DNA of 64,000 nt from IMG/VR virus record IMGVR_UViG_3300044796_000394. One strand, written 5' to 3'. Origin of the DNA: a virus (Duplodnaviria > Heunggongvirae > Uroviricota > Caudoviricetes). Every line of letters begins with the position of its first letter. The first letter of the stretch is position 1. This document shows, piece after piece, positions 1,588 through 52,522 of the stretch. The notes beneath the pieces are model-generated. The model was not told the origin of the DNA, searched no databases, and was given only the letters and a program-made list of their open reading frames with translations. The position numbers and the translations under genes are program-made.

Positions 1588-2162
1588 AGCTTGCCTTCTG
1601 CTAAATCTTGGTACAATTTATTAGTTTTAGCCCAAGCGGTCGCATCACGATAGTGAATATTGAAGTGCTGAATTTGAAGATCGCAATGCTGACTCTTTTT
1701 GAAGTTAACGCATTGTTCGTGAACCCGACCTGAATACCTAACGTGTTTTCTCATCAACCGGTACTGCGAGTCCCCGTTCGGACAAGGAACCCATTCACGG
1801 GTCATCTCTAAATCAAACCAGTGAAGTCTGGACATTGTCCAAGTGTCAACGCCTTGAGCATTACCTTGGTGACATAAATCTCGCAATCGTGCAGCGTGTG
1901 CGGGCAACATAATTTCATCTGAGTCAATGGTCAAAAGCCACTGACTTTTGACACGATCTATTAACCCATTTCTCATACTGCCGAAATCGGTAAATTTGAA
2001 TGTGAATGGATTATAACCAGCTTCACGTAGCCATTTTTCGGTGCCGTCATTGGTTTTATCATCAATACCAATGACGTAATCATCAACATGACCCTTTATG
2101 CTCGCAAGACATTTTTTGAGTGGCTCTAATTCGTTACAAGTTAAAATACAAGCTGTTAGCAT
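1584..2162 (-). CDS. Glycosyltransferase family 2
   Basis: ACILTCNE start, DFGSMRN, WLLTIDSDE (DxD), GRVHE, IQHF. Confidence 0.85.
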   Translation of the reverse strand: MLTACILTCNELEPLKKCLASIKGHVDDYVIGIDDKTNDGTEKWLREAGYNPFTFKFTDFGSMRNGLIDRVKSQWLLTIDSDEIMLPAHAARLRDLCHQGNAQGVDTWTMSRLHWFDLEMTREWVPCPNGDSQYRLMRKHVRYSGRVHEQCVNFKKSQHCDLQIQHFNIHYRDATAWAKTNKLYQDLAEGKL

Positions 2163-2170
2163 AAAATAAC

Positions 2171-2917
2171 TTAGTTAGTTCTCCTGTCATTCATAACAAA
2201 AAGCTTCCGATCACGCAAAGCTGTCGTATAAATATTTTCATCAGGAAGTTGTTCAATATCCATTTCACAAGTCCAAGCAAATTCTTGAAGTGCCATGAAG
2301 TTTGGAATGAAAAAAGAACCCGCACCAACATGTTTAACGTATTGTTGGCCTCTGTATACAGTAGTGTGCCGTTCTGGTCTATCGCTGGCTACTTCTAAAA
2401 TAGGCTTCTCAATGTTTATTCTAGTTAAGGGTGTTTCGATGAGAATTTGGCCACCCGGTGACAGCAATTGGGTCATCTTTCTAAAATGACCCAATACATC
2501 TTCGGCGTGATATAAAACACCAAAATACAAAATTACATCATACTTTTTATCTTCGCCAAGATTCAAAAAGTTATCAACTACAATGTCCAATTCAACGTTC
2601 CATTCAGCATTTGCCAAAAGGAGTCTATTCGGAAAATGGCCAATACACATTTCGAGGGGATTGATTGATGTGACAGACTTTGCGCCTGCGAGCATTGAAC
2701 CTATTGAGAAAAACCCATCATTAGCACCAATATCTAAAACTTTTTTGTCTTTGACATTAACGCCAACTCGCCGAAATGCTTCCCACATTTTTTGTTCACG
2801 ATTACGGTCATGATTAGCCCCCATAATCCTACTACCGTCTGGTAGTGGCATATTATGGAACCACATGCCTTTATCAACAAGTTTTCCGTCCCAAGCATAA
2901 TCAAAAAATGACTTCAT
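2171..2917 (-). CDS. SAM-dependent methyltransferase (CmoB/DUF1698-like)
   Basis: VLDIGANDGFFS motif I; YDVILYFGVLYH; LSPGGQILIET. Confidence 0.8.
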   Translation of the reverse strand: MKSFFDYAWDGKLVDKGMWFHNMPLPDGSRIMGANHDRNREQKMWEAFRRVGVNVKDKKVLDIGANDGFFSIGSMLAGAKSVTSINPLEMCIGHFPNRLLLANAEWNVELDIVVDNFLNLGEDKKYDVILYFGVLYHAEDVLGHFRKMTQLLSPGGQILIETPLTRINIEKPILEVASDRPERHTTVYRGQQYVKHVGAGSFFIPNFMALQEFAWTCEMDIEQLPDENIYTTALRDRKLFVMNDRRTN

Positions 2918-2976
2918 AACATGTATATAAGGCCGCTACTAGGCTTTCTTGTACACAATGTTTGCCGTCTGATCGA

Positions 2977-3417
2977 TCACCGCCGCACAAGACCGCTATA
3001 AGTATCGTAGTACTGTGCACCTTCTGAGTACGCTATTTCTAATTCATTGATGACTTCTTGGTAATAAACGCCATCCCGATAACCACTCAGATACAAATGA
3101 CGCAAAGTTGCCATGTTTGGATAGTGATTTGGGAACAAGAGATAGCGGTTATCTTTCTTGCTATTGGCAAATCCATCCACAAAACCATCAACCCACTGAA
3201 CCGTTGTTTGTAGCTCTTTGGCAATTTGATAGTTAATGTAATCTTCTATCTTTTGCCCTAAGATGATGGTTTCAAGTGGATGACAAATCTTCTCTTTTCC
3301 TACTGGCGAATAACATCCTGCTTTAGCCTGTAGCTTCATGAACTTGCTGATGCTATAGCCGTGACTCATGGCCATATCAACACTGTGGTCAAGTTTGTCT
3401 TTGAGGACTTTTTTCAT
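2977..3417 (-). CDS. Hypothetical protein (start moved to ATG 3417, MKKVLKDK)
   Basis: Open frame; the moved start removes the overlap with the upstream gene. Confidence 0.55.
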   Translation of the reverse strand: MKKVLKDKLDHSVDMAMSHGYSISKFMKLQAKAGCYSPVGKEKICHPLETIILGQKIEDYINYQIAKELQTTVQWVDGFVDGFANSKKDNRYLLFPNHYPNMATLRHLYLSGYRDGVYYQEVINELEIAYSEGAQYYDTYSGLVRR

Positions 3418-3439
3418 CTTTTTTTTCACAAGAATACCC

Positions 3440-4678
3440 TTATCGCCACATGGAAACAAAGTAACACTTACCGTCTCGCTCACCGACGACAATAGGGAAT
3501 ACGATATTGTTGTCTACCAACATCGTATCAAGGAAAGTTGAAGCGGTAACAGCGTTGTCAAATTCGTGTACGACACCTTTAGCATCGGTAATCGTCCAAT
3601 GGTCAACATCTTTATTCGGACGAATAAAGGAATTGTTGACGTTAATGCTTGGCACCAAAACCCACAGATAATCGAAGAAGGGATGACCACCAAGAGAGTC
3701 AAACTCTTCAACCTTATCGATAATCTTTTGTGTACTTGGCGGAATGCTGCCAAAAACAGGCAAAGGATACATGCGAGACTGGTAGAAGAAGTTCGATGAC
3801 CCACCAATCAGCGGGGCAAACTTGGTGTTCAAAATTAAGGTCTTCTTGATCGCTTCGGCTTTCGGATCATCCGAAGCTGCCTCATCGGACTTTTTGTCTG
3901 CCCAGAATTTGAAGTTGTCAAAATACTTGGACGGTACGATGATGTTGCCAGAGTCACTCCATCGGAACCCGTGCATACGAGCCAAGGTTACAGATGCTTC
4001 ATCGGGACGAATCCGATAGAAACCACAATAAGCCGACATGGACTCTTGAAGCGACTTCATTCGCTTTCCAAAAGTACCGGCTAATTCAGCCATGCCGATG
4101 TTGGCAAATTTATTTTGCTTCTTTTCCAACTCTGCCATCTCTTCATTGCTAGATGTTGAAAATCTGGCAAACCGATTGAAGTTAATGGGTTGTGAGAAAA
4201 AGGCATTCTCGCCCGTGGTGAAGAGGGACTTCAACCCGATGTTGTGAGGATTTTTCTTGACCGCTCGTTGATCCTTGCGTTCAACGACATTGGCCAAAAG
4301 GCGTGTACGAGGCTGTTGAATGGCCCGAAGCAAAGTCTTGCTTTCCGTCCATTTGTCTAATTCGCCTTCTCGATTAACTTTTCCATCTTCCGCAGCCTCG
4401 GCGCAGAATTTGAAAACTTCGAGTGCGCATTTCGGCAAACTTTCAACGAAAACCTCAAGATCGGGATGCTTGAGATCAACTCTGCTGGCAAACTTTTTAA
4501 GCTTGCGACCAGTGTCACCGAGACTAGCCTTAACGGTTTCGTCAGAAGTCTCGGCAATCTTGCTGAGGAATTTAACCCAACTAGGGATACTGCAAACTGC
4601 CTTTTCTTGGCAGTCGAATATCGCCTCAACCTTCGATTGGGTACTTTTAACCTGATCCAGAAGTTCGGCAGTCGCCAT
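3440..4678 (-). CDS. Hypothetical protein, 412 aa
   Basis: Long ORF with SD GGAG 7 nt before ATG; no recognisable motif. Confidence 0.7.
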   Translation of the reverse strand: MATAELLDQVKSTQSKVEAIFDCQEKAVCSIPSWVKFLSKIAETSDETVKASLGDTGRKLKKFASRVDLKHPDLEVFVESLPKCALEVFKFCAEAAEDGKVNREGELDKWTESKTLLRAIQQPRTRLLANVVERKDQRAVKKNPHNIGLKSLFTTGENAFFSQPINFNRFARFSTSSNEEMAELEKKQNKFANIGMAELAGTFGKRMKSLQESMSAYCGFYRIRPDEASVTLARMHGFRWSDSGNIIVPSKYFDNFKFWADKKSDEAASDDPKAEAIKKTLILNTKFAPLIGGSSNFFYQSRMYPLPVFGSIPPSTQKIIDKVEEFDSLGGHPFFDYLWVLVPSINVNNSFIRPNKDVDHWTITDAKGVVHEFDNAVTASTFLDTMLVDNNIVFPIVVGERDGKCYFVSMWR

Positions 4679-4728
4679 GTGTATTCTCCGGGTACGAACT
4701 TACATTCTACCCATGACAATGAAAAGAA

Positions 4729-5253
4729 TCAATCTTTAGAAGTTTTAGGAACTAATCTTACGGAAAGCCTAGTACCTTCAAACTTTGGAGGTGATACGGT
4801 TGTACCAACATCTTGAATGGATGCTAAAATCTTATTCATGATAATGAAGCCACGATCTTTGTGCTGCATTTCACGACTTCTGAAAACGATGTTAACCGAT
4901 ACAGGATGCTTGTCATTCAAAAACTTCTTCAGTTGATTGATTTTGACTTCAACATCATTATCACCGGAAACAGGTCGTAACCGAATTTCCTTCGGTGCGA
5001 CATTCTTAGAATTGTTTTGTTGCTCTTTCTTCTTCTTCTTTTCTTCGTACTGAAATCGCTTGTAGTCCATGATTTCGCATACAGGTATGTCGCCAGCGGA
5101 CACTTCCACTAGATCCATATCGTTAGACCACGCCAAGTCCCAAGCCTTGTACGTTGGCATGATCCCTAAGTGTTCACCGTCTCGTTTTACCCGTACAGTG
5201 GGTGCGGTGATGTAGCGGTTTACCCGTGTCATCCGTTTGTTGAAAATCGTCAT
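4729..5253 (-). CDS. infC: Translation initiation factor IF-3
   Basis: RVNRYITAPTVRV, DMDLVEVS, PVCEIMDYKRFQYE, KEIRLRP, VNIVFRSRE, PPKFEG; real start may be ATT at 5247. Confidence 0.93.
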   Translation of the reverse strand: MTIFNKRMTRVNRYITAPTVRVKRDGEHLGIMPTYKAWDLAWSNDMDLVEVSAGDIPVCEIMDYKRFQYEEKKKKKEQQNNSKNVAPKEIRLRPVSGDNDVEVKINQLKKFLNDKHPVSVNIVFRSREMQHKDRGFIIMNKILASIQDVGTTVSPPKFEGTRLSVRLVPKTSKD

Positions 5254-5294
5254 TCTCCAATAGTACTTGTTTTAAAATGGGACAAGAAACAACC

Positions 5295-5498
5295 CTATAA
5301 TCCAAAGCACTCTTCAACACTATCCGGATCGATTACATCAGGAATATAATCCTTCACAGAAAAATATTCCTTTGGATGCATTCTCTCTAAATCAGTCAAA
5401 ATCTTCTTTAACTTTTTCTCGTCGGTGAAAACGACCACGACTTCATCGCTTTCGTTTTCTTGACCGGGAGCCATCGTCACATAAATCGCTTTCATCAA
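5295..5498 (-). CDS. Small hypothetical protein
   Basis: Fits the operon tiling, 4-nt overlap with its neighbour. Confidence 0.55.
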   Translation of the reverse strand: MMKAIYVTMAPGQENESDEVVVVFTDEKKLKKILTDLERMHPKEYFSVKDYIPDVIDPDSVEECFGL

Positions 5499-5692
5499 AA
5501 AATCTGCTTTCCAGTTAGTTTCAAAATAATTTCAGGATCGACAACTGAATTGCCGTGTTCATCAAAAAAATGAACCCATCCATCTTCCGTGAGTCTTTCC
5601 CCACGATGATACCGCTTAATTGTATCGGCATCAATCTCGGCATTCATTTCTCTAATTGCCGTATCTGACAACTCTTGACGTATGTCTCTCAA
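5495..5692 (-). CDS. Small hypothetical protein
   Basis: Abuts the decarboxylase stop; operon tiling. Confidence 0.55.
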   Translation of the reverse strand: MRDIRQELSDTAIREMNAEIDADTIKRYHRGERLTEDGWVHFFDEHGNSVVDPEIILKLTGKQIF

Positions 5693-5693
5693 A

Positions 5694-7328
5694 TCAAACC
5701 TTCTTTGCTAGTTTGCTGAACATACGGCTCAGAGCGGGCGTAAAATCCCCACGCTCTATAACGGTGTTAATGATGAACGGCTCTTTGCATACAAGGGCTT
5801 GCGACAAAGCAGCATCCAACTCATCTTCAGTAGTTGCCTTGGCACCCTTACCACCACCGACCAACAACGGCATATTTTCAAAATTCCAATTTTGGATGTC
5901 GTTGAATGAACCCTCCAAGAGAATTCTTTCGGTGCCATATCCACCATTGTTGAGAACGATCACAATTGGATTCATCTTACGACGAACCAAAGTGCTGAAT
6001 TCCTGTCCTGTCATTTGGAAGGCACCATCACCCACCAATACAATTGGCCGCATCTTTGGATTGGCCAATTGAGCACCTAACGCAGCAGGCACAGCAAATC
6101 CCATACTGGTATAGAATGCTGACGCCAAAAACTGATTGTGGCCGTGTACAGTGACATCCAAGGCACCGAACAAGCTATCACCAACATCAGCGATAACAGT
6201 CATATCTTCGGTCAAGATAGCGTTAACTTTCTCCATCAACCGGTCGGCCTTGAGAGTAACGCCGCACTTGGCTTCCCATTTTTCGGTATACGCCGGGCCG
6301 GGCATCTTGACGCTTTCACGCCGTTGGAATTTGTGCTTACACAATCCGTCAACGAAGTCGCCAAACTGCACGTTGGCATACGTGTGGTTTCTCACCTGCA
6401 TGGTTTGACTGGTTGCGTTGATCGTATTGCGACGTTTGTGACGCAGTGGCAAGAATCCGAGATTCATATCCGTCATCATCACGCCCAACATAATCACGCA
6501 ATCGCTCTTGGCGAAGAAGTCAACCACTTCTGGACGACTTGTACTTTCGCTGTACACACCCAACGACATTGGATGCCGCTCACCAATACACGACTTGCCC
6601 AAGATGTCCGTAGCGATTGGAATGCCGGTTTGTTCGGCAAATTTCATTAACTTTTGACCCAAACCAAATCGGGCAACTTCAACGCCTGCCCAAATCACCG
6701 GGTTTTTGGCATTGGTGATCCAGTTAATCGTATCCGACAAAATTTCCTGTAGGTTCTCTTGATCGGAAGATATATTGGAAGGAGTGCCTACTGTGTAAGC
6801 ATCGTACGTAATTGGCTTTTCAACCATATCACGGGGTAACTCGATGTATACCGGTTGCTTGTAGTGTTTGGCTGCTTCGAGAACTCTGTCGATTTCAAAA
6901 GCCGCTCGACTTGGATCACGAAGTACCGTATTGGCACAAGTGATGTTCTCAAAAATTTCATGCTGGCATTCAAAACTGCGTACCATATGGTGAAGTAAAA
7001 CGTCACCATTACGCTCTTTCATACCCGGTGATCCGGAAATCACGACCACAGGACTCTTTTCGGCGAATGCACCACCAATAGCATTGATAAGGCTAAATCC
7101 ACCGACGCAATATGTCACACAAACCGCTGACATACCACCATTGTTAACACGGGCATAACCATCAGCAGCAAAGCCAGCATTAGCTTCATTGGTAGTACCA
7201 ACTAACTCTATGTTGCTCTTTTCAACGTACTTATTGAAAGCCAATGAATAGTCGCCGGGAACATTCAGCATGTGATTGACGCCGTTACTCTTTAACCGCT
7301 CAATCAAAAATTGGGCCACGTTAGGCAT
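5694..7328 (-). CDS. ThDP-dependent alpha-keto acid decarboxylase (pyruvate/indolepyruvate decarboxylase family)
   Basis: VPGDYSL, NEANAGFAADGYAR, LLHH, ThDP-binding GDGAFQM...NNGGYG. Confidence 0.92.
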   Translation of the reverse strand: MPNVAQFLIERLKSNGVNHMLNVPGDYSLAFNKYVEKSNIELVGTTNEANAGFAADGYARVNNGGMSAVCVTYCVGGFSLINAIGGAFAEKSPVVVISGSPGMKERNGDVLLHHMVRSFECQHEIFENITCANTVLRDPSRAAFEIDRVLEAAKHYKQPVYIELPRDMVEKPITYDAYTVGTPSNISSDQENLQEILSDTINWITNAKNPVIWAGVEVARFGLGQKLMKFAEQTGIPIATDILGKSCIGERHPMSLGVYSESTSRPEVVDFFAKSDCVIMLGVMMTDMNLGFLPLRHKRRNTINATSQTMQVRNHTYANVQFGDFVDGLCKHKFQRRESVKMPGPAYTEKWEAKCGVTLKADRLMEKVNAILTEDMTVIADVGDSLFGALDVTVHGHNQFLASAFYTSMGFAVPAALGAQLANPKMRPIVLVGDGAFQMTGQEFSTLVRRKMNPIVIVLNNGGYGTERILLEGSFNDIQNWNFENMPLLVGGGKGAKATTEDELDAALSQALVCKEPFIINTVIERGDFTPALSRMFSKLAKKV

Positions 7329-7364
7329 TTTGCACCATTCTCTATTGGAGCCAAAAACTTTTAT

Positions 7365-8192
7365 TTATTGAACCACTTCACTTGTGGGGCTATCTACAAT
7401 TTGGATCAAAAACCCATCGGAATCCATAGGAAATCGGCGAACCCACTCTACGCCTGCACCTATATCGCAACCACTAACAGTAGGAATAAAACTTGGAATT
7501 GCGCTCGGTGTGATTGTAATCGTACTAGGACTTCCCACACAACTTTTCAAAGGCATCACACCCCAAAACATCATACTACTTTCCGACTGCATCTTCAATA
7601 ACTTAAACTCCATCCAATAACAACCCGGCAAACAAGTATCCGCTGGAAGCCAATTGTAGATCAATTGCGAGTCCATAACGACATCTTTCTGTACAGTTCC
7701 ATCTAATTGAGGAATGTCTTCTAAGATGGTCGATGTTTCGGCAACCCCATTCAAAATGCGAAACACTTTGAAGGATTGGCCTTTTTTGTAGGTACCAGCA
7801 CTTGTGCCATTGTACCCACGTTGTACTTGTACTAAGTGTAGATTTTCATCAAAACCGAGAACGAGTAATTGTTCGGGATTACGAATTCGATCTACTACAA
7901 TTATATCGCCGACGTTGACTTGATAAAAGCCAACATTGTCAGCAAAACCAAAATAGGTATCTGTAGATGATACCGCTTTCTTCATTTTTCCTTTAGCCCA
8001 CATGGAAACTTCGGCAATGGTATCCGTTAAGTCCAGTGGACCATTACAATCATTTACTGATACACGGAAAGGCGGGAGGGTGTCATGCCTCTTAATTTGA
8101 AAATCAGGGCACACACCCGGAGGACACCCGAACACATCGGGGCATATTGATTGGGTGGGGCAGCATTGTCTAGTGTTTGATCCGCAACTCAT
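7365..8192 (-). CDS. Putative virion protein with BppU-like N-terminal segment
   Basis: FQIKRHDTLPPFRVSVND...PLDLT resembles baseplate-upper-protein N-termini; beta-rich; cysteine-rich extreme N-terminus. Confidence 0.45.
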   Translation of the reverse strand: MSCGSNTRQCCPTQSICPDVFGCPPGVCPDFQIKRHDTLPPFRVSVNDCNGPLDLTDTIAEVSMWAKGKMKKAVSSTDTYFGFADNVGFYQVNVGDIIVVDRIRNPEQLLVLGFDENLHLVQVQRGYNGTSAGTYKKGQSFKVFRILNGVAETSTILEDIPQLDGTVQKDVVMDSQLIYNWLPADTCLPGCYWMEFKLLKMQSESSMMFWGVMPLKSCVGSPSTITITPSAIPSFIPTVSGCDIGAGVEWVRRFPMDSDGFLIQIVDSPTSEVVQ

Positions 8193-8195
8193 GCT

Positions 8196-8753
8196 TTATT
8201 TAGGTGTCCATATATCCTTTTCAAACAAACCTTTTTCTTCCATCCAATTAACTCGCTCTTTTACCCAAAGCAAAGAACCAGTAAATTTTTCAACTACAAT
8301 ACCAGCTCGTTTAGCAATGTCTTCACCGTAACGAAAATGGTTTTTGTCAACCATCTTCAATGCTAATGGCCCCCAAACCACCCGCTTGATGCCCTTGTCG
8401 GCAATCTCCAACATACATCGCATACAAGGATGGCCCGTCACATACATCGTACAACCTTCTAATCCATTGATAGAAATCGCACGTGAATGTCTGATGGCAT
8501 TCTCTTCGGCATGTTTGATATAAGGATACTTGCCTAAATCATCTGGATTTTTTGGATCGGGTCTTGACCAATCAATCTCTTTGTCATTGATAGCTCTAGG
8601 AATGCCGTTCATGCCAAAGCCCAAAGGCACATTATTGGCATCAATAACAGCAGCGCCGGTTTGACTATTTGGATCTTTGGAACGACCGGAATATTGATAA
8701 AGAAGCCCGATATAGAACGAATCCCAATCGGGCACTGAACGAGGTGGTGTCAT
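8196..8753 (-). CDS. dCMP deaminase
   Basis: SKDP...GA, HAEENAI and PCMRC zinc motifs. Confidence 0.9.
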   Translation of the reverse strand: MTPPRSVPDWDSFYIGLLYQYSGRSKDPNSQTGAAVIDANNVPLGFGMNGIPRAINDKEIDWSRPDPKNPDDLGKYPYIKHAEENAIRHSRAISINGLEGCTMYVTGHPCMRCMLEIADKGIKRVVWGPLALKMVDKNHFRYGEDIAKRAGIVVEKFTGSLLWVKERVNWMEEKGLFEKDIWTPK

Positions 8754-9700
8754 ATTGTCATCTGTAGGTAAGAAATTTCGTAAGCATCACTCGGATAATC
8801 TTGGCGAGTCTTTAACAAAAGTCCCCGCTGATCGGGCGTCAAAGACTTCTCTATCACTTTTTCAGGAATAGGGATTTGAGACGACCAATTCCCCACATGT
8901 GGCATCATAATCCTAAAGCCGAAGGGAACAGTTCCCAAGTTAATGAACGTTACGCAAGATGCGATAAATGAATCACTTGAAGCCTCTCTGGCATATCCAC
9001 CATAAGCAGTACCGCCCTGACACTTGATTTTACACAAGACGTTCTTGGTATCATCCTTGCTTTTAACCACAGCGTAAATTAACGTACGTTCGGCGTCACG
9101 AACAATTTTGATACTTTCACGAATGGTCTCAAAGACTTGTTGATCAGATGCATTGCGTGCGGTATCGCTATCGATTTCCGGCAAAATTTCGCCACGCTCT
9201 TGTTCTTCAATCTTTGCCGATGGTGGGAGATAAGCACCGCCCGAATAAGCGACCTTCGGAAGAGCCTTACCTACACTATGACTCCCTTGAAAGTTATAGC
9301 TTGGGAGCGATCCTTGTGTCCGTTGGTAAGTTCCGCCCGATTGAATTTCAGCTCGTTGGTAAGTTTTGAAAGTTCCGCCCGATGTTTCAGACTCCTCTAA
9401 TACTTCCTTAACTGTTTTTCCAGACTTTAACAACGGCTCAGGCGCAACACCAAGAGTTGCCGTTTTTGATTGGACTTCACCGGTTGGGTATGCCGGATCA
9501 ACTTCACCATATGTCATCAAATCGTCGTAAGCACGATAAGATGCCTTTTGTGGCGGCTCTTCGCTCATGAGGTTTTCTAATTCGTCCAACTCACGATTTT
9601 TACTTTTGACGTACTCTTCATATTGCACCAACGACAAATCTTTTGCTACTTTTTCCGCTGTCAGCTTTATCGATCTAATTTTGGTTTTGGTTTTTTTCAT
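8750..9700 (-). CDS. Hypothetical protein, 316 aa
   Basis: Long ORF; internal short repeat SGGTFKTYQR/SGGTYQR. Confidence 0.65.
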   Translation of the reverse strand: MKKTKTKIRSIKLTAEKVAKDLSLVQYEEYVKSKNRELDELENLMSEEPPQKASYRAYDDLMTYGEVDPAYPTGEVQSKTATLGVAPEPLLKSGKTVKEVLEESETSGGTFKTYQRAEIQSGGTYQRTQGSLPSYNFQGSHSVGKALPKVAYSGGAYLPPSAKIEEQERGEILPEIDSDTARNASDQQVFETIRESIKIVRDAERTLIYAVVKSKDDTKNVLCKIKCQGGTAYGGYAREASSDSFIASCVTFINLGTVPFGFRIMMPHVGNWSSQIPIPEKVIEKSLTPDQRGLLLKTRQDYPSDAYEISYLQMTI

Positions 9701-9715
9701 TGTGTTCTCTAAAAA

Positions 9716-10051
9716 TTAACATTCGTCAAATTTGTACTTGCCATCTTTGATAGCAATCAAAGTGTCGACATCGTAATCATCCGTAGCTTTTTTTTCGGCT
9801 TTTGTCAAAGACTGAATTCGGTTTAGCAAATATCGCAATCTAGCATTGGAGCAGACTAGGCCGGTGTGATCTACGAATTGGTCACAATAATCACCGTTAC
9901 TGAGTATACCAACCATATGACCAAATTCAAGGTAGTATTTGGCGAAACAGGCCGGAAGTTCCGTACGAAAGTAATGAGACAGATAAGATAATTCCGATGA
10001 AAATTTAGGACTCATGAAATCGCCACGAATTATTTTAGCATCATCTGTCAT
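9716..10051 (-). CDS. Hypothetical protein
   Basis: ATGA overlap with the RNA ligase stop. Confidence 0.6.
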   Translation of the reverse strand: MTDDAKIIRGDFMSPKFSSELSYLSHYFRTELPACFAKYYLEFGHMVGILSNGDYCDQFVDHTGLVCSNARLRYLLNRIQSLTKAEKKATDDYDVDTLIAIKDGKYKFDEC

Positions 10052-23164: not shown

Positions 23165-23310
23165 GGGTAACATTTAGCAGATGTACTCACATCGAGATCC
23201 GTAATTCGTGATTCAAAAAGGGTTCAAAGCCCTTCGTGACTGAATGATGGAATTGAACCATCCTATCTTGTGGGTATAAACCACTGACGCCCCCGTGGCA
23301 ATTCATACCC
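23165..23310 (-). ncRNA. Candidate Y-RNA-like (YrlA-type) permuted tRNA mimic
   Basis: Starts 5 nt after the Ro60 stop; T arm GATGG-TTCAATT-CCATC, loop-closed acceptor-like stem, D-like arm with GG, helix TACCCACA/TGTGAGTA, terminal GGGTA/TACCC. Confidence 0.62.
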
Positions 23311-23315
23311 ATATA

Positions 23316-24929
23316 TTACTCTTCATCACCTTCATCTTCAATAGAAGATTTTCGCAGGTGTTTACCGTCTAAATCAATCTTCACAATCTCGCCCACAACA
23401 TGGTCGGCATCCATATTGCCATCAACGAATTGCTTAACCAACTTGAAGACGTTGTCACTAAACCCGCCAAGGTTCAGAACATCCTTCATTTCCTGTACTT
23501 GCGTAGTGGCGTACGGTGCTACGTCGATACAAACCAACTTCGCCTTCGGATTACGCTGCTTCCAACGCTTCCATTCGGCTTGGAATTGACTCTCACCCTT
23601 CAATCTCTTACCGTACCGATCCGTATTCAACGATTCACACCAAGATTGATTGTCCGATACGCAGATCAGCAAATCGCCAACCCTGTTCGCATCGTTCAAC
23701 AACTTAAGTGGCGCCCAACAAGCCGTACCACCATCCGCAATCTTACCGATTGCCGACGCATTCGCCATCACAGATTGCTCCGGATCGACATTGAATGGTA
23801 CAACATGCTTTTGGAAGAACATCATTTCAGCGTTCGGATTGTTTCTCTTGAAACAAGACGCAATCAGCGCAGCCACATCCACACAACGAGTTACCGTTGA
23901 AGCCGATCCACGACCGCCCGTCACTGGGTACGTCATGGACTTGGAAACATCGGTAAAGACGTACGCAGGAACGCTATCCTTGTAATGCGTCTCAAACGAC
24001 GGAATGTTGCGAGTAGCAATCTCCATCGCCCGTTCCAAACCATCCCGCAACTCGACAGGCACACCAACGGTATTTTGGTACGCCGTCATAATCTGATACG
24101 GAAATACGGAAGCCTTTTTGATCGACACAGGATCAGCCAAGCGGTTTGCAAGCAATTCAACCATCCCCGGCACGTTAAACACACCTTGTCGTTGAAGAGT
24201 TGCCAGATTACGGAGCAACCAGAACCAGCTCGCCTTTTGAGCGATTTCGGCCCATTGATCGGTGCCTAACTTTTTGGCAGTATACATACGGAAATCCGTC
24301 TTCGGCATTTCCTTAGTTTCGCCCTTCTTCCACGCTTCGTAAACCTTAACCGATTCCGGCAACGCATCATGGTTAAATGGTCGGTCAACCATCATACCAT
24401 AAAGGGCGGAACGAGTCTTATCCAATGGGCGTGGGTGAATGTTCTTCAAGATCGTCTTGAGAGAAGGCGTACCGACGCTCTGTTGCCAGATTTCCGTAGG
24501 CGTACGGCTATTCAACCAATTAACCATTAACTCTTTTGGAACGGTTCCAAAAGACTTACGACCGGTCTTGCCAGATCGAATGATTTGGTAGAAATTGCGG
24601 AACATCGTGCCATCGTTAATGACACGTACGAAAGTCTTACGAAGCAGCTTCGTTTCCTTGCGTGCAGCTAATACAGCGCATAACAAGGCCGGAACATCCT
24701 TCATAAAGTACAATTCACGGCTGAACACGGCACACTGCGCCACGAATTCAGGCTCCACAATCATTGCGGCATTTTGAATTTGATCTAGCTGTTTCTTGGC
24801 ACTCACGTAAAGCGTGTTGCCGAGACATGAAGTCGTGCTGAGTAAAGCAAGGGTTTGCTTGGGCGTTAATTGATACGCTACACCACCAGCCTCATTGAAA
24901 GAATCCAAAGAACTAAATAACTTATTCAT
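23316..24929 (-). CDS. Ro60/TROVE-domain RNA-binding protein (Rsr-like)
   Basis: NEAGGVAY, LRNLATL, VFPYQI, vWA DVSKSM, GGT...PL, VSDNQSW, GGFSDNVF. Confidence 0.93.
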   Translation of the reverse strand: MNKLFSSLDSFNEAGGVAYQLTPKQTLALLSTTSCLGNTLYVSAKKQLDQIQNAAMIVEPEFVAQCAVFSRELYFMKDVPALLCAVLAARKETKLLRKTFVRVINDGTMFRNFYQIIRSGKTGRKSFGTVPKELMVNWLNSRTPTEIWQQSVGTPSLKTILKNIHPRPLDKTRSALYGMMVDRPFNHDALPESVKVYEAWKKGETKEMPKTDFRMYTAKKLGTDQWAEIAQKASWFWLLRNLATLQRQGVFNVPGMVELLANRLADPVSIKKASVFPYQIMTAYQNTVGVPVELRDGLERAMEIATRNIPSFETHYKDSVPAYVFTDVSKSMTYPVTGGRGSASTVTRCVDVAALIASCFKRNNPNAEMMFFQKHVVPFNVDPEQSVMANASAIGKIADGGTACWAPLKLLNDANRVGDLLICVSDNQSWCESLNTDRYGKRLKGESQFQAEWKRWKQRNPKAKLVCIDVAPYATTQVQEMKDVLNLGGFSDNVFKLVKQFVDGNMDADHVVGEIVKIDLDGKHLRKSSIEDEGDEE

Positions 24930-41786: not shown

Positions 41787-42790
41787 TATTGTGCCTTTAT
41801 TTGAAGAAACTCTTTTATCAAATCATCAATATTGTTAATATCTGAGTAGTGGATAATCAACAATGGAATCTTTTTATCTTTAGCCCATCTACTTTTTATA
41901 TGATCTCGTTTTTTTATAGCCGCCAAATTATCAATAGCATCATCACAACTTATTGTGTTAGACCAATATACAGGAACATAATGTTGTATGCCATTATATT
42001 CAATAAGAAATTGATTTTCCTTAATGTTAACTAAAAAATCAAATGGCAACCTGTTGACACTAATGCAATCTTCAAATGTGGCTTGCCTAATAAAAGTTAA
42101 ATTTTGTTGAGACAAAAATTCAACAATCTTTTTTTCACCTCTTGATTCACAGCAAAAAGGACAACCTCTGCCGCCAGATCGATTACATATCATCGCTTCC
42201 CATTGGTGTTCTTTAACAAAAGAACATTGCCACCAAACCTTTTTATGACTTCCTGCTGTCACTTCATACGGCGTTATTTGATTTATGGAATGCCACTCTT
42301 GTGACAGAATTGGATGCGTTGTCGCCAAACAATTTGATTGTACAATTTTATGCGTACGACCGACACTGCGGCAACAAGGACATCCTCTACCAGCAAGTCT
42401 TTTTACTGGACTTGCAAACCATTCGTGATCTTCAGCAACGAAACATTTCCACCAAACTTTAATACCGCTACCAATAGTCAAATCAAACGGTGAAAAACTA
42501 TTTTTCAGATGCCACTGTTTTGCTAACTCTGGCTCTTTTGTCGCAATACAATTAGACAGAGATACTTTTTGCCCAGCACAAAAAGGACATTTCGTTTTTT
42601 CAATAACTCGTTTATTAACGGTAGTTTGCCACTCATGATCTTCGGCAGTTGAACATTTCCACCATATTTTTTTATGACTTCCAAAGCTAATTTCAAAAGG
42701 ATTTATGCCCAAATTTTTAGTCGGATGCCATTCTTTAACTATTTCTGGGTACAATTTACCGAAGCAGTTTTTATTCGTGACTTTTTTCAT
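41786..42790 (-). CDS. Treble-clef Zn-ribbon repeat (DUF4379-like) PD-(D/E)xK endonuclease
   Basis: Three EW H...GS.KK.WW.C....H.W......R....CP.C units; ESRGE...LPFDF...IEYNGIQHY...RD.IK. Confidence 0.8.
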   Translation of the reverse strand: MKKVTNKNCFGKLYPEIVKEWHPTKNLGINPFEISFGSHKKIWWKCSTAEDHEWQTTVNKRVIEKTKCPFCAGQKVSLSNCIATKEPELAKQWHLKNSFSPFDLTIGSGIKVWWKCFVAEDHEWFASPVKRLAGRGCPCCRSVGRTHKIVQSNCLATTHPILSQEWHSINQITPYEVTAGSHKKVWWQCSFVKEHQWEAMICNRSGGRGCPFCCESRGEKKIVEFLSQQNLTFIRQATFEDCISVNRLPFDFLVNIKENQFLIEYNGIQHYVPVYWSNTISCDDAIDNLAAIKKRDHIKSRWAKDKKIPLLIIHYSDINNIDDLIKEFLQIKAQ

Positions 42791-44226
42791 TGAATTTCAA
42801 TTTTTTTAGGCTCTACATTACCCGCTTTAGCTTTTCTATAATTGGTTAAGTGCATTTGCATTTCCTCTTTGGGAATTTCCGACATTAACAAAGTACCCGT
42901 ATTCATCTTATAGTGAATTTCTTGCCTACTAATGCCGTCTCTATGTTTGATAGCAAACAAACTACCAACATTACAACCAGATTCAGGTTTATTCAAAGAC
43001 CAAATAGCATCCATCGGTCGAGCTTGACCAAAACTGTCGGCCATTGCATCATCATCGATATGCCCTTCAAAGTCCTGCGCCTCACGACCCTTGCGGTTAG
43101 CCTGAATAGCCGTCAATGTACAATGTAGCTCTTCCTGTCCAAAGGCACGCATTTCACGAACCAGCAATTGACGACTCTCGTAAGTCTTCATGCCGTGGAT
43201 GTCTTTCAATTCACCGACGTAATCCACGCAAATCAAATCAGGCTTGAAACCATACAATCCCAACTGAGAAACATACGCCCGGAAAGTATTAATGTCGGCA
43301 GAACCACCCGGATAATGCTTGATAATCAACTGACGAGTATCTTCATCATGCTTAACGTGCTCAAGAATTGCCTGCTTGACAATATTTTGATCCTGCAAAA
43401 GCATCTTGAATTCAGTATTGGAAAGCAAGGAGTCAAATCGTTTGGCGATCTTGTCTTGGCTCATTTCCAACGTGATATACAAAACTTTCTTACTCAAAAG
43501 AAGGTTAGATGCTGCGGCGTTAATAAGGGCAATGGACTTACCGGCACCCGACAAACCTACGAAACAGCCGATTTCACCACGGGATAAACCCTTGGACGTA
43601 AGCATTTGATCGATGCCCTTGAAGCCGGAAGTAAAGATTTCCTTACCTGCCAACTCTTCTTGCATCCGCTGGTAACGTTCATCGAGGGTATTGAAATAAT
43701 CCAATCCCAAGTCTTGACTCTTTTCGGTAGTTAACGCACTTCGCCACAAATCCCAAATCTTTCCATAAGGATCTTTGTCAGCTTTAATGAGATCGATGGT
43801 TTGGTGAACTGCGATCTTGATGGCTTGCTTCTTGGCGAAGTCGCAAACCTTGTCCATCAAGTAGTCACGGGTTAACGACCCCGGAACATAAGACATCAAA
43901 ATCGCTTCCAATTCACCTAAGTGCAGGAAGAGGTGTTCTTTGTTCTTGCAACGTTCTTTGAGTTCTTGTTGTACGTAGGCTTTGTTTGGAAGTTGTTTGT
44001 ATTGTCCGAAGAAATCAAAGACGATCTTACAAATGAGTTCGTGGGATAAGTCGCCGAAATAAGTCGGCTTCAACAAACTGAGACATTGAACCAGAAAGTG
44101 TCTGTCAGTTAACAGAACCGCAACGATTTGTTTGTCTATCTCGTAAGAATGGTCAAAATGGGCTTCTTCTTTTTTTTCCTGTATCAAACTATGAACTAAC
44201 GCCTTGTCTTTATCACTAATCTGCAT
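42787..44226 (-). CDS. Replicative DNA helicase (DnaB/gp41-like)
   Basis: GLSGAGKS Walker A, YITLEMS, LICVDY, TAIQANR, MADSFG. Confidence 0.9.
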   Translation of the reverse strand: MQISDKDKALVHSLIQEKKEEAHFDHSYEIDKQIVAVLLTDRHFLVQCLSLLKPTYFGDLSHELICKIVFDFFGQYKQLPNKAYVQQELKERCKNKEHLFLHLGELEAILMSYVPGSLTRDYLMDKVCDFAKKQAIKIAVHQTIDLIKADKDPYGKIWDLWRSALTTEKSQDLGLDYFNTLDERYQRMQEELAGKEIFTSGFKGIDQMLTSKGLSRGEIGCFVGLSGAGKSIALINAAASNLLLSKKVLYITLEMSQDKIAKRFDSLLSNTEFKMLLQDQNIVKQAILEHVKHDEDTRQLIIKHYPGGSADINTFRAYVSQLGLYGFKPDLICVDYVGELKDIHGMKTYESRQLLVREMRAFGQEELHCTLTAIQANRKGREAQDFEGHIDDDAMADSFGQARPMDAIWSLNKPESGCNVGSLFAIKHRDGISRQEIHYKMNTGTLLMSEIPKEEMQMHLTNYRKAKAGNVEPKKIEIQ

Positions 44227-46679: not shown

Positions 46680-46955
46680 TCAAGAGATTATTCCAACAAT
46701 CTTACCAATACCTACAATCCCACTTCCTTCACGAATTGTAAAGTGGCTTCCGACTTCTATTGCTGAATAATCAATGTGTTCATAGAGACATTCAAATGAT
46801 ACTTCATTAATTCCGAAATTCATAGGGTCACAAAATTTAATTCCCAGATAATCGGCTTGGTCGTAAAGAACAAGATGTGGGCGATAACCTGCAACTGTTG
46901 GCGTTCTTCTTCCGCCAATCTCTAGTAATTCTATTGCGGCTTTATACTTTGGCAT
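46680..46955 (-). CDS. Stand-alone EF-Tu domain III-like protein
   Basis: GGRRTP..AGYRP and FTIREGSGIVGIGKI match EF-Tu C-terminal GGRHTPF..GYRP and FAIREGGRTVGAGVV; AAGGA SD. Confidence 0.72.
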   Translation of the reverse strand: MPKYKAAIELLEIGGRRTPTVAGYRPHLVLYDQADYLGIKFCDPMNFGINEVSFECLYEHIDYSAIEVGSHFTIREGSGIVGIGKIVGIIS

Positions 46956-46985
46956 ATTTTTCCTTCGTTCAGATTATTCGAAAAG

Positions 46986-47098
46986 ACCCCCTGGGACCAA
47001 AGATTAAAGTACTATAGGTTAAGTACCTTTAACTGGCTTTAGAGTATTTGTGAGCACTTGTTGAATATCTTAGAACTAAAGCTCTGGTCCCGTGGGGT
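46986..47098. other. Three-way-junction structured intergenic element
   Basis: GGGACCA/TGGTCCC closing stem plus two internal hairpins. Confidence 0.5.
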
Positions 47099-47345
47099 GT
47101 AAGCCGTAGATGACTCGATATAGCGAACTCGGAATGGGGTCAGGTTTCCGGGGAGGCCCGCAAAGTGAAGCGGTCGCCGTTTTTCTCAATCAATCACAGA
47201 GAGCGAATGCTGGCTTGTGGCTGAAAGGAATCTAGGTGATTCATACCTGTTGCTAAAGTGTCTTTAGAAAGTTAGAATGTGCATCTGGTGAGGTGGTAGT
47301 TCATTAGTCAATAGTTCGTGGAAGTACGGAAAGTATATAAAACAA

Positions 47346-51293: not shown

Positions 51294-51531
51294 CGAAATT
51301 ATTCCTTTTAGCGGCCAAAAAGTCATAGTGACATGTATTAAGTATAAAGTTTCAGGTATCATGCAGCAACCTTACAAGCTTTATGGTACCGAATACGTTG
51401 TAGTACAAAAAGACAATTTGTTCCACTATAACTTGCGTTTAGGAAATATAGTTTCCATTGAACCACAACCATCAAAATACAAAGTGGAGATTTTAGATGA
51501 ATCTCAATACGCTGCCAATCAGCATAGTTAA
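51283..51531 (+). CDS. Small beta-barrel paralog 6
   Basis: FSGQKVIV...SGIM...KVEILD. Confidence 0.7.
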   Translation: MLINEIIPFSGQKVIVTCIKYKVSGIMQQPYKLYGTEYVVVQKDNLFHYNLRLGNIVSIEPQPSKYKVEILDESQYAANQHS

Positions 51532-52522
51532 CAAGATGGGAAAGAACCTTCATCAAAAAAAGGATCACCCATTACAAAAACTCCAAAAACGTATCACAAG
51601 TCTCTTCACAGACTTCAAAATCTTTGATCAAGTTTATCCAGTAGTATCGGTTGAGGATAACTTCGACCGCCTTTTGGTACCACACAATCACCCGTCACGC
51701 AGCCCTAGCGACACTTACTATCTGGACAATAAAGAAGTCCTTCGTACTCATACTTCAGCACACCAACACCAGTTGCTTCGCCGTGGAAACAAAAAGTTCC
51801 TAGTGGTGGGTGATGTTTACCGCAAGGATGAAATCGATAGGAACCATTATCCCGTCTTTCACCAGATTGAAGGCGTTTGCATCTATCCGGATGATGAGCG
51901 GGAAGTTGAAGAAAAACTCCATCATCATATTTACGATGTTATGAGTGATTTGTTCCCCAACATGCCAACACGTCGATTAAAAAGCAGTTTCCCCTTCACT
52001 CATCCGTCGTGGGAATACGAGGTTTTCTTTAAGCAGAACTGGTTAGAGATTTTGGGTTGTGGTATCATCCAGCCAGAAATTTTGAAATCTGCCGAAGTTA
52101 AAGGTAAAGGTTGGGCATTCGGCATGGGATTGGAACGCCTAGCGATGGCATTGTATGACATTCCCGATATTCGTTACTTCTGGTCAGATGATCCGAGAAC
52201 CACAGACCAGTTCAAGGATATGGGCGACGACTTCAAATTCAAACCGTACAGCCTCCATCCATCATGCTATAAGGATATTGCGTTTTGGCTTAAGGGGGAA
52301 TTTAATACGGGCGAATTCTTTCAAATGATACGTGATGAAGGCCAAGACCTTATCGAAAGAGTTGTCAAAACGGACACCTACACCAGAGAAGACGGCAAAA
52401 CAAGTATATGTTACCGTATCTTCTACTGCTCAATGGATAGGACGCTGACAAACGAAGAGATTGATACTATCCAATTCAGAATACGCAAAAGAATGAGCGA
52501 TTTTAACGTGGAGCTAAGATGA
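51497..52522 (+). CDS. Single-chain (organellar-type) phenylalanyl-tRNA synthetase: alpha catalytic core + FDX-ACB
   Basis: NLHQKKDHPL, LRTHTS, YRKDEID, FHQIEG, FPFTHPS, FGMGLERLAM, IPDIRYFW, C-terminal DIAFW...RTLTNEEI. Confidence 0.9.
   Translation: MNLNTLPISIVNKMGKNLHQKKDHPLQKLQKRITSLFTDFKIFDQVYPVVSVEDNFDRLLVPHNHPSRSPSDTYYLDNKEVLRTHTSAHQHQLLRRGNKKFLVVGDVYRKDEIDRNHYPVFHQIEGVCIYPDDEREVEEKLHHHIYDVMSDLFPNMPTRRLKSSFPFTHPSWEYEVFFKQNWLEILGCGIIQPEILKSAEVKGKGWAFGMGLERLAMALYDIPDIRYFWSDDPRTTDQFKDMGDDFKFKPYSLHPSCYKDIAFWLKGEFNTGEFFQMIRDEGQDLIERVVKTDTYTREDGKTSICYRIFYCSMDRTLTNEEIDTIQFRIRKRMSDFNVELR

Follow-up and report, generated by a model that had tools for sequence, protein, structure and literature searches.

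Why should a huge phage carry the third domain of elongation factor Tu (EF-Tu) as a gene of its own? The question is raised by a short gene in the window analysed here, a stretch of 64,000 nucleotides that belongs to a 430-kb virus record with a completeness estimate of 97%. Its reading frame is intact from the ATG start to the TGA stop and encodes 91 aa (protein P0001); the identical protein is also present on a 614-kb contig. The Shine-Dalgarno sequence AAGGA, 5 nt ahead of the ATG, is the commonest 5-mer upstream of long ORFs in this phage genome. The protein is acidic (pI 5.5, net charge -3). The gene heads a co-oriented replication block that continues with a family A DNA polymerase, a DnaB-like helicase and a weak UvsY-like match (Table 1). 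The non-coding gap upstream of it folded no better than shuffled sequences (z -1.6 and -0.1) and gave no Rfam family, no genome repeat and no promoter excess. An imperfect long hairpin inside the gap, just upstream of the Shine-Dalgarno sequence, could be a leader with a regulatory role or belong to a small RNA. The phage record also holds 37 tRNA calls, a tmRNA, IF3 and PheRS, the last two lying in the same window.

Table 1. Positions of the P0001 gene and of other features in the window
Feature	Position	Strand	Basis
Stand-alone EF-Tu domain III-like protein P0001, 91 aa	46680..46955	-	ORF, Pfam, fold
Shine-Dalgarno AAGGA	46961..46965	-	sequence
Family A DNA polymerase gene, 31 nt downstream of the P0001 gene	45341..46648	-	context
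DnaB-like helicase, same co-oriented replication block	42787-44226	-	context
Non-coding gap, 390 nt, between the P0001 gene and a divergent 230-aa gene	46956..47345		sequence
Imperfect long hairpin inside the 390-nt gap	46985-47090
Ro60/TROVE gene	23316-24929	-	
tRNA-like T-arm hairpin (5-bp stem, TTCAATT loop), non-coding DNA after Ro60	23246-23262	-	sequence
Single-chain PheRS	51497-52522	+	TIGR00469 above cut-off
IF3	4729-5253	-

To establish what P0001 is, we compared it with profiles and structures of EF-Tu. It scored 31 bits against Pfam PF03143 (cut-off 27) over profile positions 7-105 of 106, so that the entire domain is matched; the initial annotation had noted agreement at both ends of domain III, which stands, and the ends are not all that agrees. 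The AlphaFold model (pLDDT 97.6) shows the six-stranded barrel of EF-Tu domain III. In a Foldseek search against the PDB, a check that the initial annotation had called for, its top matches were all EF-Tu and no fold mismatch was seen. Superposition on residues 302-394 of E. coli EF-Tu gave a VIA-align Z of 13.2 and an rmsd of 1.7 A over 85 aligned residues. A full-length three-domain EF-Tu, for which the TIGR00485 model requires more than 522 bits, was rejected as an identity for P0001, which reached 27.6 bits over profile positions 305-393 only. A tblastn search of the 430-kb record with full-length EF-Tu returned the P0001 gene alone. These results confirm the earlier description of a free-standing domain III with its own Shine-Dalgarno sequence, and extend its claim that no G-domain or domain II lies nearby to the whole record.

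Compared with domain III of EF-Tu (E. coli, about residues 300-393), P0001 is about 25% identical and retains the motifs GGR..P, GY+P and REG..VG.G together with the equivalents of R330 and E390, but it has no G-domain or domain II, carries H and L in place of Q341 and T350, has lost the FF and EMVM segments and has gained a four-residue insertion bearing an invariant Tyr (DY). The residues H27 and T73 of P0001 are the same changes as E. coli Q329H and A375T, which we take to be kirromycin-resistance changes at the interface of domains I and III; a literature search on these positions found no paper.

P0001 belongs to an unnamed family that is separate from tuf. A full HMMER scan of 50%-identity representatives gave 150 matches at E<=0.001, of which 131 are 80-135 aa long; the remainder include a tuf piece and a few long repeat proteins that do not belong to the family. 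Family matches scored up to 84 bits and the best EF-Tu 24 bits; with a core family profile, held-out members had a median score of 59 bits and EF-Tu scored 10-18 bits. P0001 has the length (85-135 aa) and the YxPH, YLG+xF and LY..+DY motifs of the family, whose members are closer to each other than to EF-Tu; in full, the motifs that it has in common with them are GR..P..GYxPH, YLG+xF, LY..+DYS and F.+REG..+G.G. Features found in the family alone are the H of YxPH in place of Q (97%), YLG in place of VTG, and the four-residue insertion with the invariant Tyr at its end. In trees, a branch of 1.7-2.8 changes per column with support of 100/100 separates the family from EF-Tu, and this length marks the family as an offshoot of long standing rather than a broken tuf. 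A decayed tuf fragment, which the initial annotation had named as the finding that would overturn its reading, is not borne out by the trees and substitution rates: the family is not nested in EF-Tu, no tuf remains are found in the record, and dN/dS is about 0.35 or lower.

The family is widespread and common in databases, where its members are often misnamed 'EF-Tu-like GTPase'; in the Atlas, several clusters of these proteins carry the name 'Elongation factor Tu' or 'hypothetical'. Single domains of this kind may also lie behind some 'EF-Tu' calls in huge phages. The pI is below 6.5 in 81% of the family; a low pI is usual for immunity proteins and holds for EF-Tu domain III too. Some members (P0023, P0096, P0106, P0140, P0184 and L048 5001-5924) are fused to other small domains, one of them to a methyltransferase-like domain, and some of these fusions may be read-through of adjoining cassettes. 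We found no paper on the family among open-access papers, no family for P0001 in PHROGs or PADLOC, and no noteworthy stand-alone viral match to its model in BFVD. A word-based homolog search with P0001 alone returned only itself. No relatives were detected when viral contigs were scanned with P0001 and two family alignments (A4 and A5) or with the polymerase and helicase of this phage, nor when JGI metagenomes were scanned with A4. With tblastn, GenBank phages contained no family member and plasmids one unannotated match.

Within the family tree, P0001 groups with P0002-5, P0007, P0024 and P0037 (support 96/86 and 96/94); a quick tree of 208 rows placed P0001 outside this phage clade, so the grouping is good and not beyond doubt. 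The six clade members whose context is visible all have phage-like surroundings, P0004 and P0007 being on contigs too short to read. Comparisons of P0001 with four phage relatives gave dN/dS of 0.33, 0.36, 0.13 and a saturated value, rough figures with synonymous sites near saturation, and codon-position identity ran second > first > third in all four pairs. These codon patterns show that the gene has been retained under purifying selection in the phage clade. Orphan immunity genes and translation genes of huge phages are already known; the new part here is this conserved clade of the family in huge phages.

The gene could also be a cassette passenger or a decayed piece of tuf with no present job in the phage. 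Its position differs between relatives, and its GC3 is 0.23 against 0.42 +/- 0.08 for long ORFs of the genome. These two features together suggest that the gene moved to its present site fairly recently from a relative of lower GC. It nevertheless keeps an intact frame and a Shine-Dalgarno sequence, and its 50% identity to the copy on a related phage contig (L001) lies inside the 29-69% range of the neighbouring genes shared with that contig. With the codon patterns and the long branch to EF-Tu described above, these findings make a jobless passenger or relic very improbable. The L001 contig (31% GC) is collinear over 1893-9938 with positions 395442-412092 of this phage's record, and the collinear genes include HesB, peptide deformylase, YqeY and a glutamate dehydrogenase-like gene; the contig offers a handle on the wider phage group.

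Three of the phage-clade relatives sit among tRNA or translation genes. On L001 the family gene lies between tRNAs and peptide deformylase, in a block of about 12 collinear genes common to the tRNA region of this phage (395-412 kb); P0005 follows a GlyRS-like class II synthetase (57% identical to one in this phage) and precedes tRNA-Pro; and P0037 is three genes past ribosomal S21. P0024 directly follows a pyrimidine-dimer glycosylase, and P0003 is surrounded by small unknown genes. Huge phages are reported to encode translation factors, including EF-Tu, EF-Ts, S21, aminoacyl-tRNA synthetases and peptide deformylase (PMC7162821). This phage belongs to the same class of genome, and relatives of P0001 adjoin such genes, whereas P0001 itself is a single non-catalytic domain, unable to act as an elongation factor; a gene of its type is absent from the main text of that report.

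The surroundings, with the tRNAs, tmRNA, IF3 and PheRS of this phage, raise the main rival to the antidote role proposed below: the phage-clade protein would help translation by binding tRNA, tmRNA, a tRNA-like RNA or the ribosome through the old T-stem face, perhaps to protect the phage's tRNAs against nucleases or to adjust their supply. We therefore mapped the tRNA-binding residues of EF-Tu onto P0001. T-stem specificity in EF-Tu is set by Q341, T350 and E390 (PMC3239215). Aligned with T. thermophilus EF-Tu, P0001 has R16, H27, L37 and E76 at the positions of R330, Q341, T350 and E390, so that the Glu alone of the T-stem trio is kept, and a fully conserved set of T-stem binders was rejected with two of the three replaced. 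Across the family, E76 is invariant and R16 present in 90%, which favours RNA binding, but the Q341 position is H in 97% and the T350 position L in 86%. Conservation within the family is highest on the T-stem face; its conserved residues (R16/Y24/P26/H27/E76/G77) are equivalent to a surface that in EF-Tu is turned towards domain I and the T-stem of tRNA. With two of the three T-stem residues fixed to new ones in an acidic protein, the old face appears to serve a new partner, and the pattern suggests that this partner is more likely a protein than a tRNA.

Other points weigh against the translation helper too. All three domains of EF-Tu join in tRNA binding (PMC3747624). The P0001 gene lies about 120-135 kb from the main tRNA cluster of its own phage, and about 135 kb from the site equivalent to that on L001; tRNA clusters gather many small accessory genes; and the bacterial members generally do not stand beside translation genes. 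We consider this explanation possible, if unlikely. The initial annotation had also proposed binding to the T-arm of a Y-like RNA. The RNA after Ro60 matched no Rfam Y RNA family, it lies 23 kb away and nothing ties it to the P0001 gene, and this proposal is left unsupported.

The opposite side of domain III bears on a further suggestion of the initial annotation, that the protein titrates EF-Ts, binding its subdomain C and altering the recycling of host EF-Tu. The idea draws on the fact that domain III forms half of the EF-Ts interface (PMC3747624). In M. tuberculosis EF-Tu, N358 of the PGDN motif contacts EF-Ts, though most of the listed contacts are in domain I (PMC9529903). This N corresponds to N50 of P0001, and the five closest phage proteins all have it, but the preceding D357 is I49 and is not conserved across the family. 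The FF and EMVM segments, which we take to face EF-Ts in the complex from E. coli, show little or no variation in EF-Tu, yet they are among the most variable columns of the family. Apart from N50 in the phage clade, the EF-Ts side is thus largely not conserved, and with its EF-Ts-facing residues mostly replaced, P0001 is extremely unlikely to be an EF-Ts titrator.

We then examined the bacterial relatives of P0001 at about 40 distinct loci, near copies among them. The bacterial members are single-copy and patchy, occurring in about 1% or fewer of genomes in the samples searched, and most lie in runs of small unrelated genes of the cassette or orphan-immunity array type. About 10 loci showed an attC-like pattern, an uncontrolled count that is suggestive only; an Rhs-motif flag at one locus (L055) was set aside as probably due to chance. 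At L062/L063 the member lies within an immunity array with three SMI1_KNR4 and one SUKH-3 gene as well as DUF7716 and DUF695 genes, and at L015 an Imm5-like gene is immediately upstream of it, so that orphan copies in immunity arrays, a trait of polymorphic-toxin immunity, are found at these loci. Such arrays (SUKH/SMI1-KNR4, Imm5) and integron-type cassettes are the usual setting of the bacterial relatives, whereas P0001 is found in a lytic-type huge phage, adjoining a DNA polymerase, with no toxin neighbour and no immunity array around it.

At one of these loci (L096/L098), found with a family profile that excluded EF-Tu, the family gene starts 8 nt inside the end of a gene for a CdiA-like protein of at least 2505 aa, which in L096 has DUF637, DUF6862 and a weak hemagglutinin-repeat match. 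To judge by gene order, this arrangement is that of a toxin and its immunity gene in CdiA-type systems. The L096 family gene scored 59 bits against the family profile and is 23% identical to EF-Tu and 36% identical to P0001 over 94 aa. By Atlas features, TreTu_C and Tox-ART-HYD1 are among the neighbours of the toxin tip (0.89), a lead that falls short of an assignment. The tip had no Pfam match, its search against PDB sequences gave only a chance kinase match, and its single-sequence model was unusable (pLDDT 38).

A known parallel is the Salmonella Rhs ADP-ribosyltransferase TreTu with its immunity protein TriTu (PMC9825190): L096 likewise has a toxin tip followed by a small immunity-type gene, and TreTu_C is among the feature neighbours of its tip. 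TriTu is described as a lid over the active site, and TreTu modifies Asp21 in domain I of EF-Tu (PMC9825190), whereas fold searches with P0001 returned no TriTu-like structure.

Taken together, the family and its contexts lead us to a tentative reading that may well be right, namely that P0001 is a phage-borne orphan antidote or decoy against a toxin that targets translation. The family would have arisen long ago from EF-Tu domain III; in bacteria its members would confer immunity to one ADP-ribosyltransferase-like toxin tip and be widely retained as orphans in cassettes and immunity arrays; and a group of huge phages would have acquired one member and kept it under purifying selection. Made during infection, P0001 would bind and block, through the conserved face described above, a translation-targeting toxin that comes from a host defence or from a neighbouring cell that injects it, and the infected cell could go on making protein. 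Four parts of this reading are inferred: the toxin belongs to the ADP-ribosyltransferases, EF-Tu is either its target or the route by which it acts, family members neutralise it, and the phage protein has kept this ability.

Several results count against this antidote role. A toxin stands directly upstream of a member at only one of the about 40 bacterial loci, and that member is on a long branch outside the phage clade; a single toxin pair fits a family that is mostly orphan immunity genes, without proving it. Searches of this phage, of viral contigs and of plasmids detected no relative of the toxin tip. Immunity proteins are usually specific for their toxin, and at 36% identity to the L096 gene the phage copy need not block the same toxin. 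The phage relatives among tRNA, GlyRS-like, peptide deformylase and S21 genes fit the translation helper equally well. If the phage copy does block a translation-targeting toxin, phages would be reusing an interbacterial immunity gene as counter-defence, and the gene would be a lead to a new toxin or defence system directed at EF-Tu. In its most specific form, in which a huge-phage lineage co-opted an immunity protein that had evolved from the toxin's own cellular target or docking site, as a target-mimicking counter-defence against an undescribed EF-Tu-directed ADP-ribosyltransferase system, we think the proposal improbable.

Alternatively, P0001 might act as a general decoy for EF-Tu, directed against a host anti-phage system that detects or attacks this factor and has no connection with the L096 tip; examples would be a Lit-like protease, a type IV Thoeris-like protease and an EF-Tu-dependent tRNase. 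EF-Tu-cleaving defences are known (Lit, PMC3014915; a Thoeris caspase, PMC13434031), the gene is kept across the phage clade and its fold is near-identical to domain III. This alternative is weakened, however, by the attack sites, which lie in domain I (Lit at Gly59-Ile60, PMC3014915; TreTu at Asp21, PMC9825190) and domain 2 (CdiA NC101, PMC9086364). With Lit cutting in domain I and Gol binding domains II and III (PMC3014915), domain III alone would not be a Lit substrate, which speaks against the initial annotation's example of a titrated defence. The low identity to EF-Tu and the family-specific residues on the conserved face indicate that P0001 is not a faithful mimic of EF-Tu. Such a decoy would also have to compete with EF-Tu itself, one of the most abundant proteins of the cell. 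We regard it as doubtful at best. Of the decoy or translation-modulator function originally suggested for this gene, the family evidence is in keeping with a selected, free-standing domain III whose role resembles that of a decoy or antidote; the mechanisms named for it fit less well.

In the Atlas, the neighbours of the L096 tip (L096 1080-1421) also include unnamed clusters of 107-118 aa that resemble the tip (0.91-0.93), from Planctomycetota, Cyanobacteriota and Acidobacteriota. These small tip-like proteins could be stand-alone toxins and candidate targets for the phage protein.
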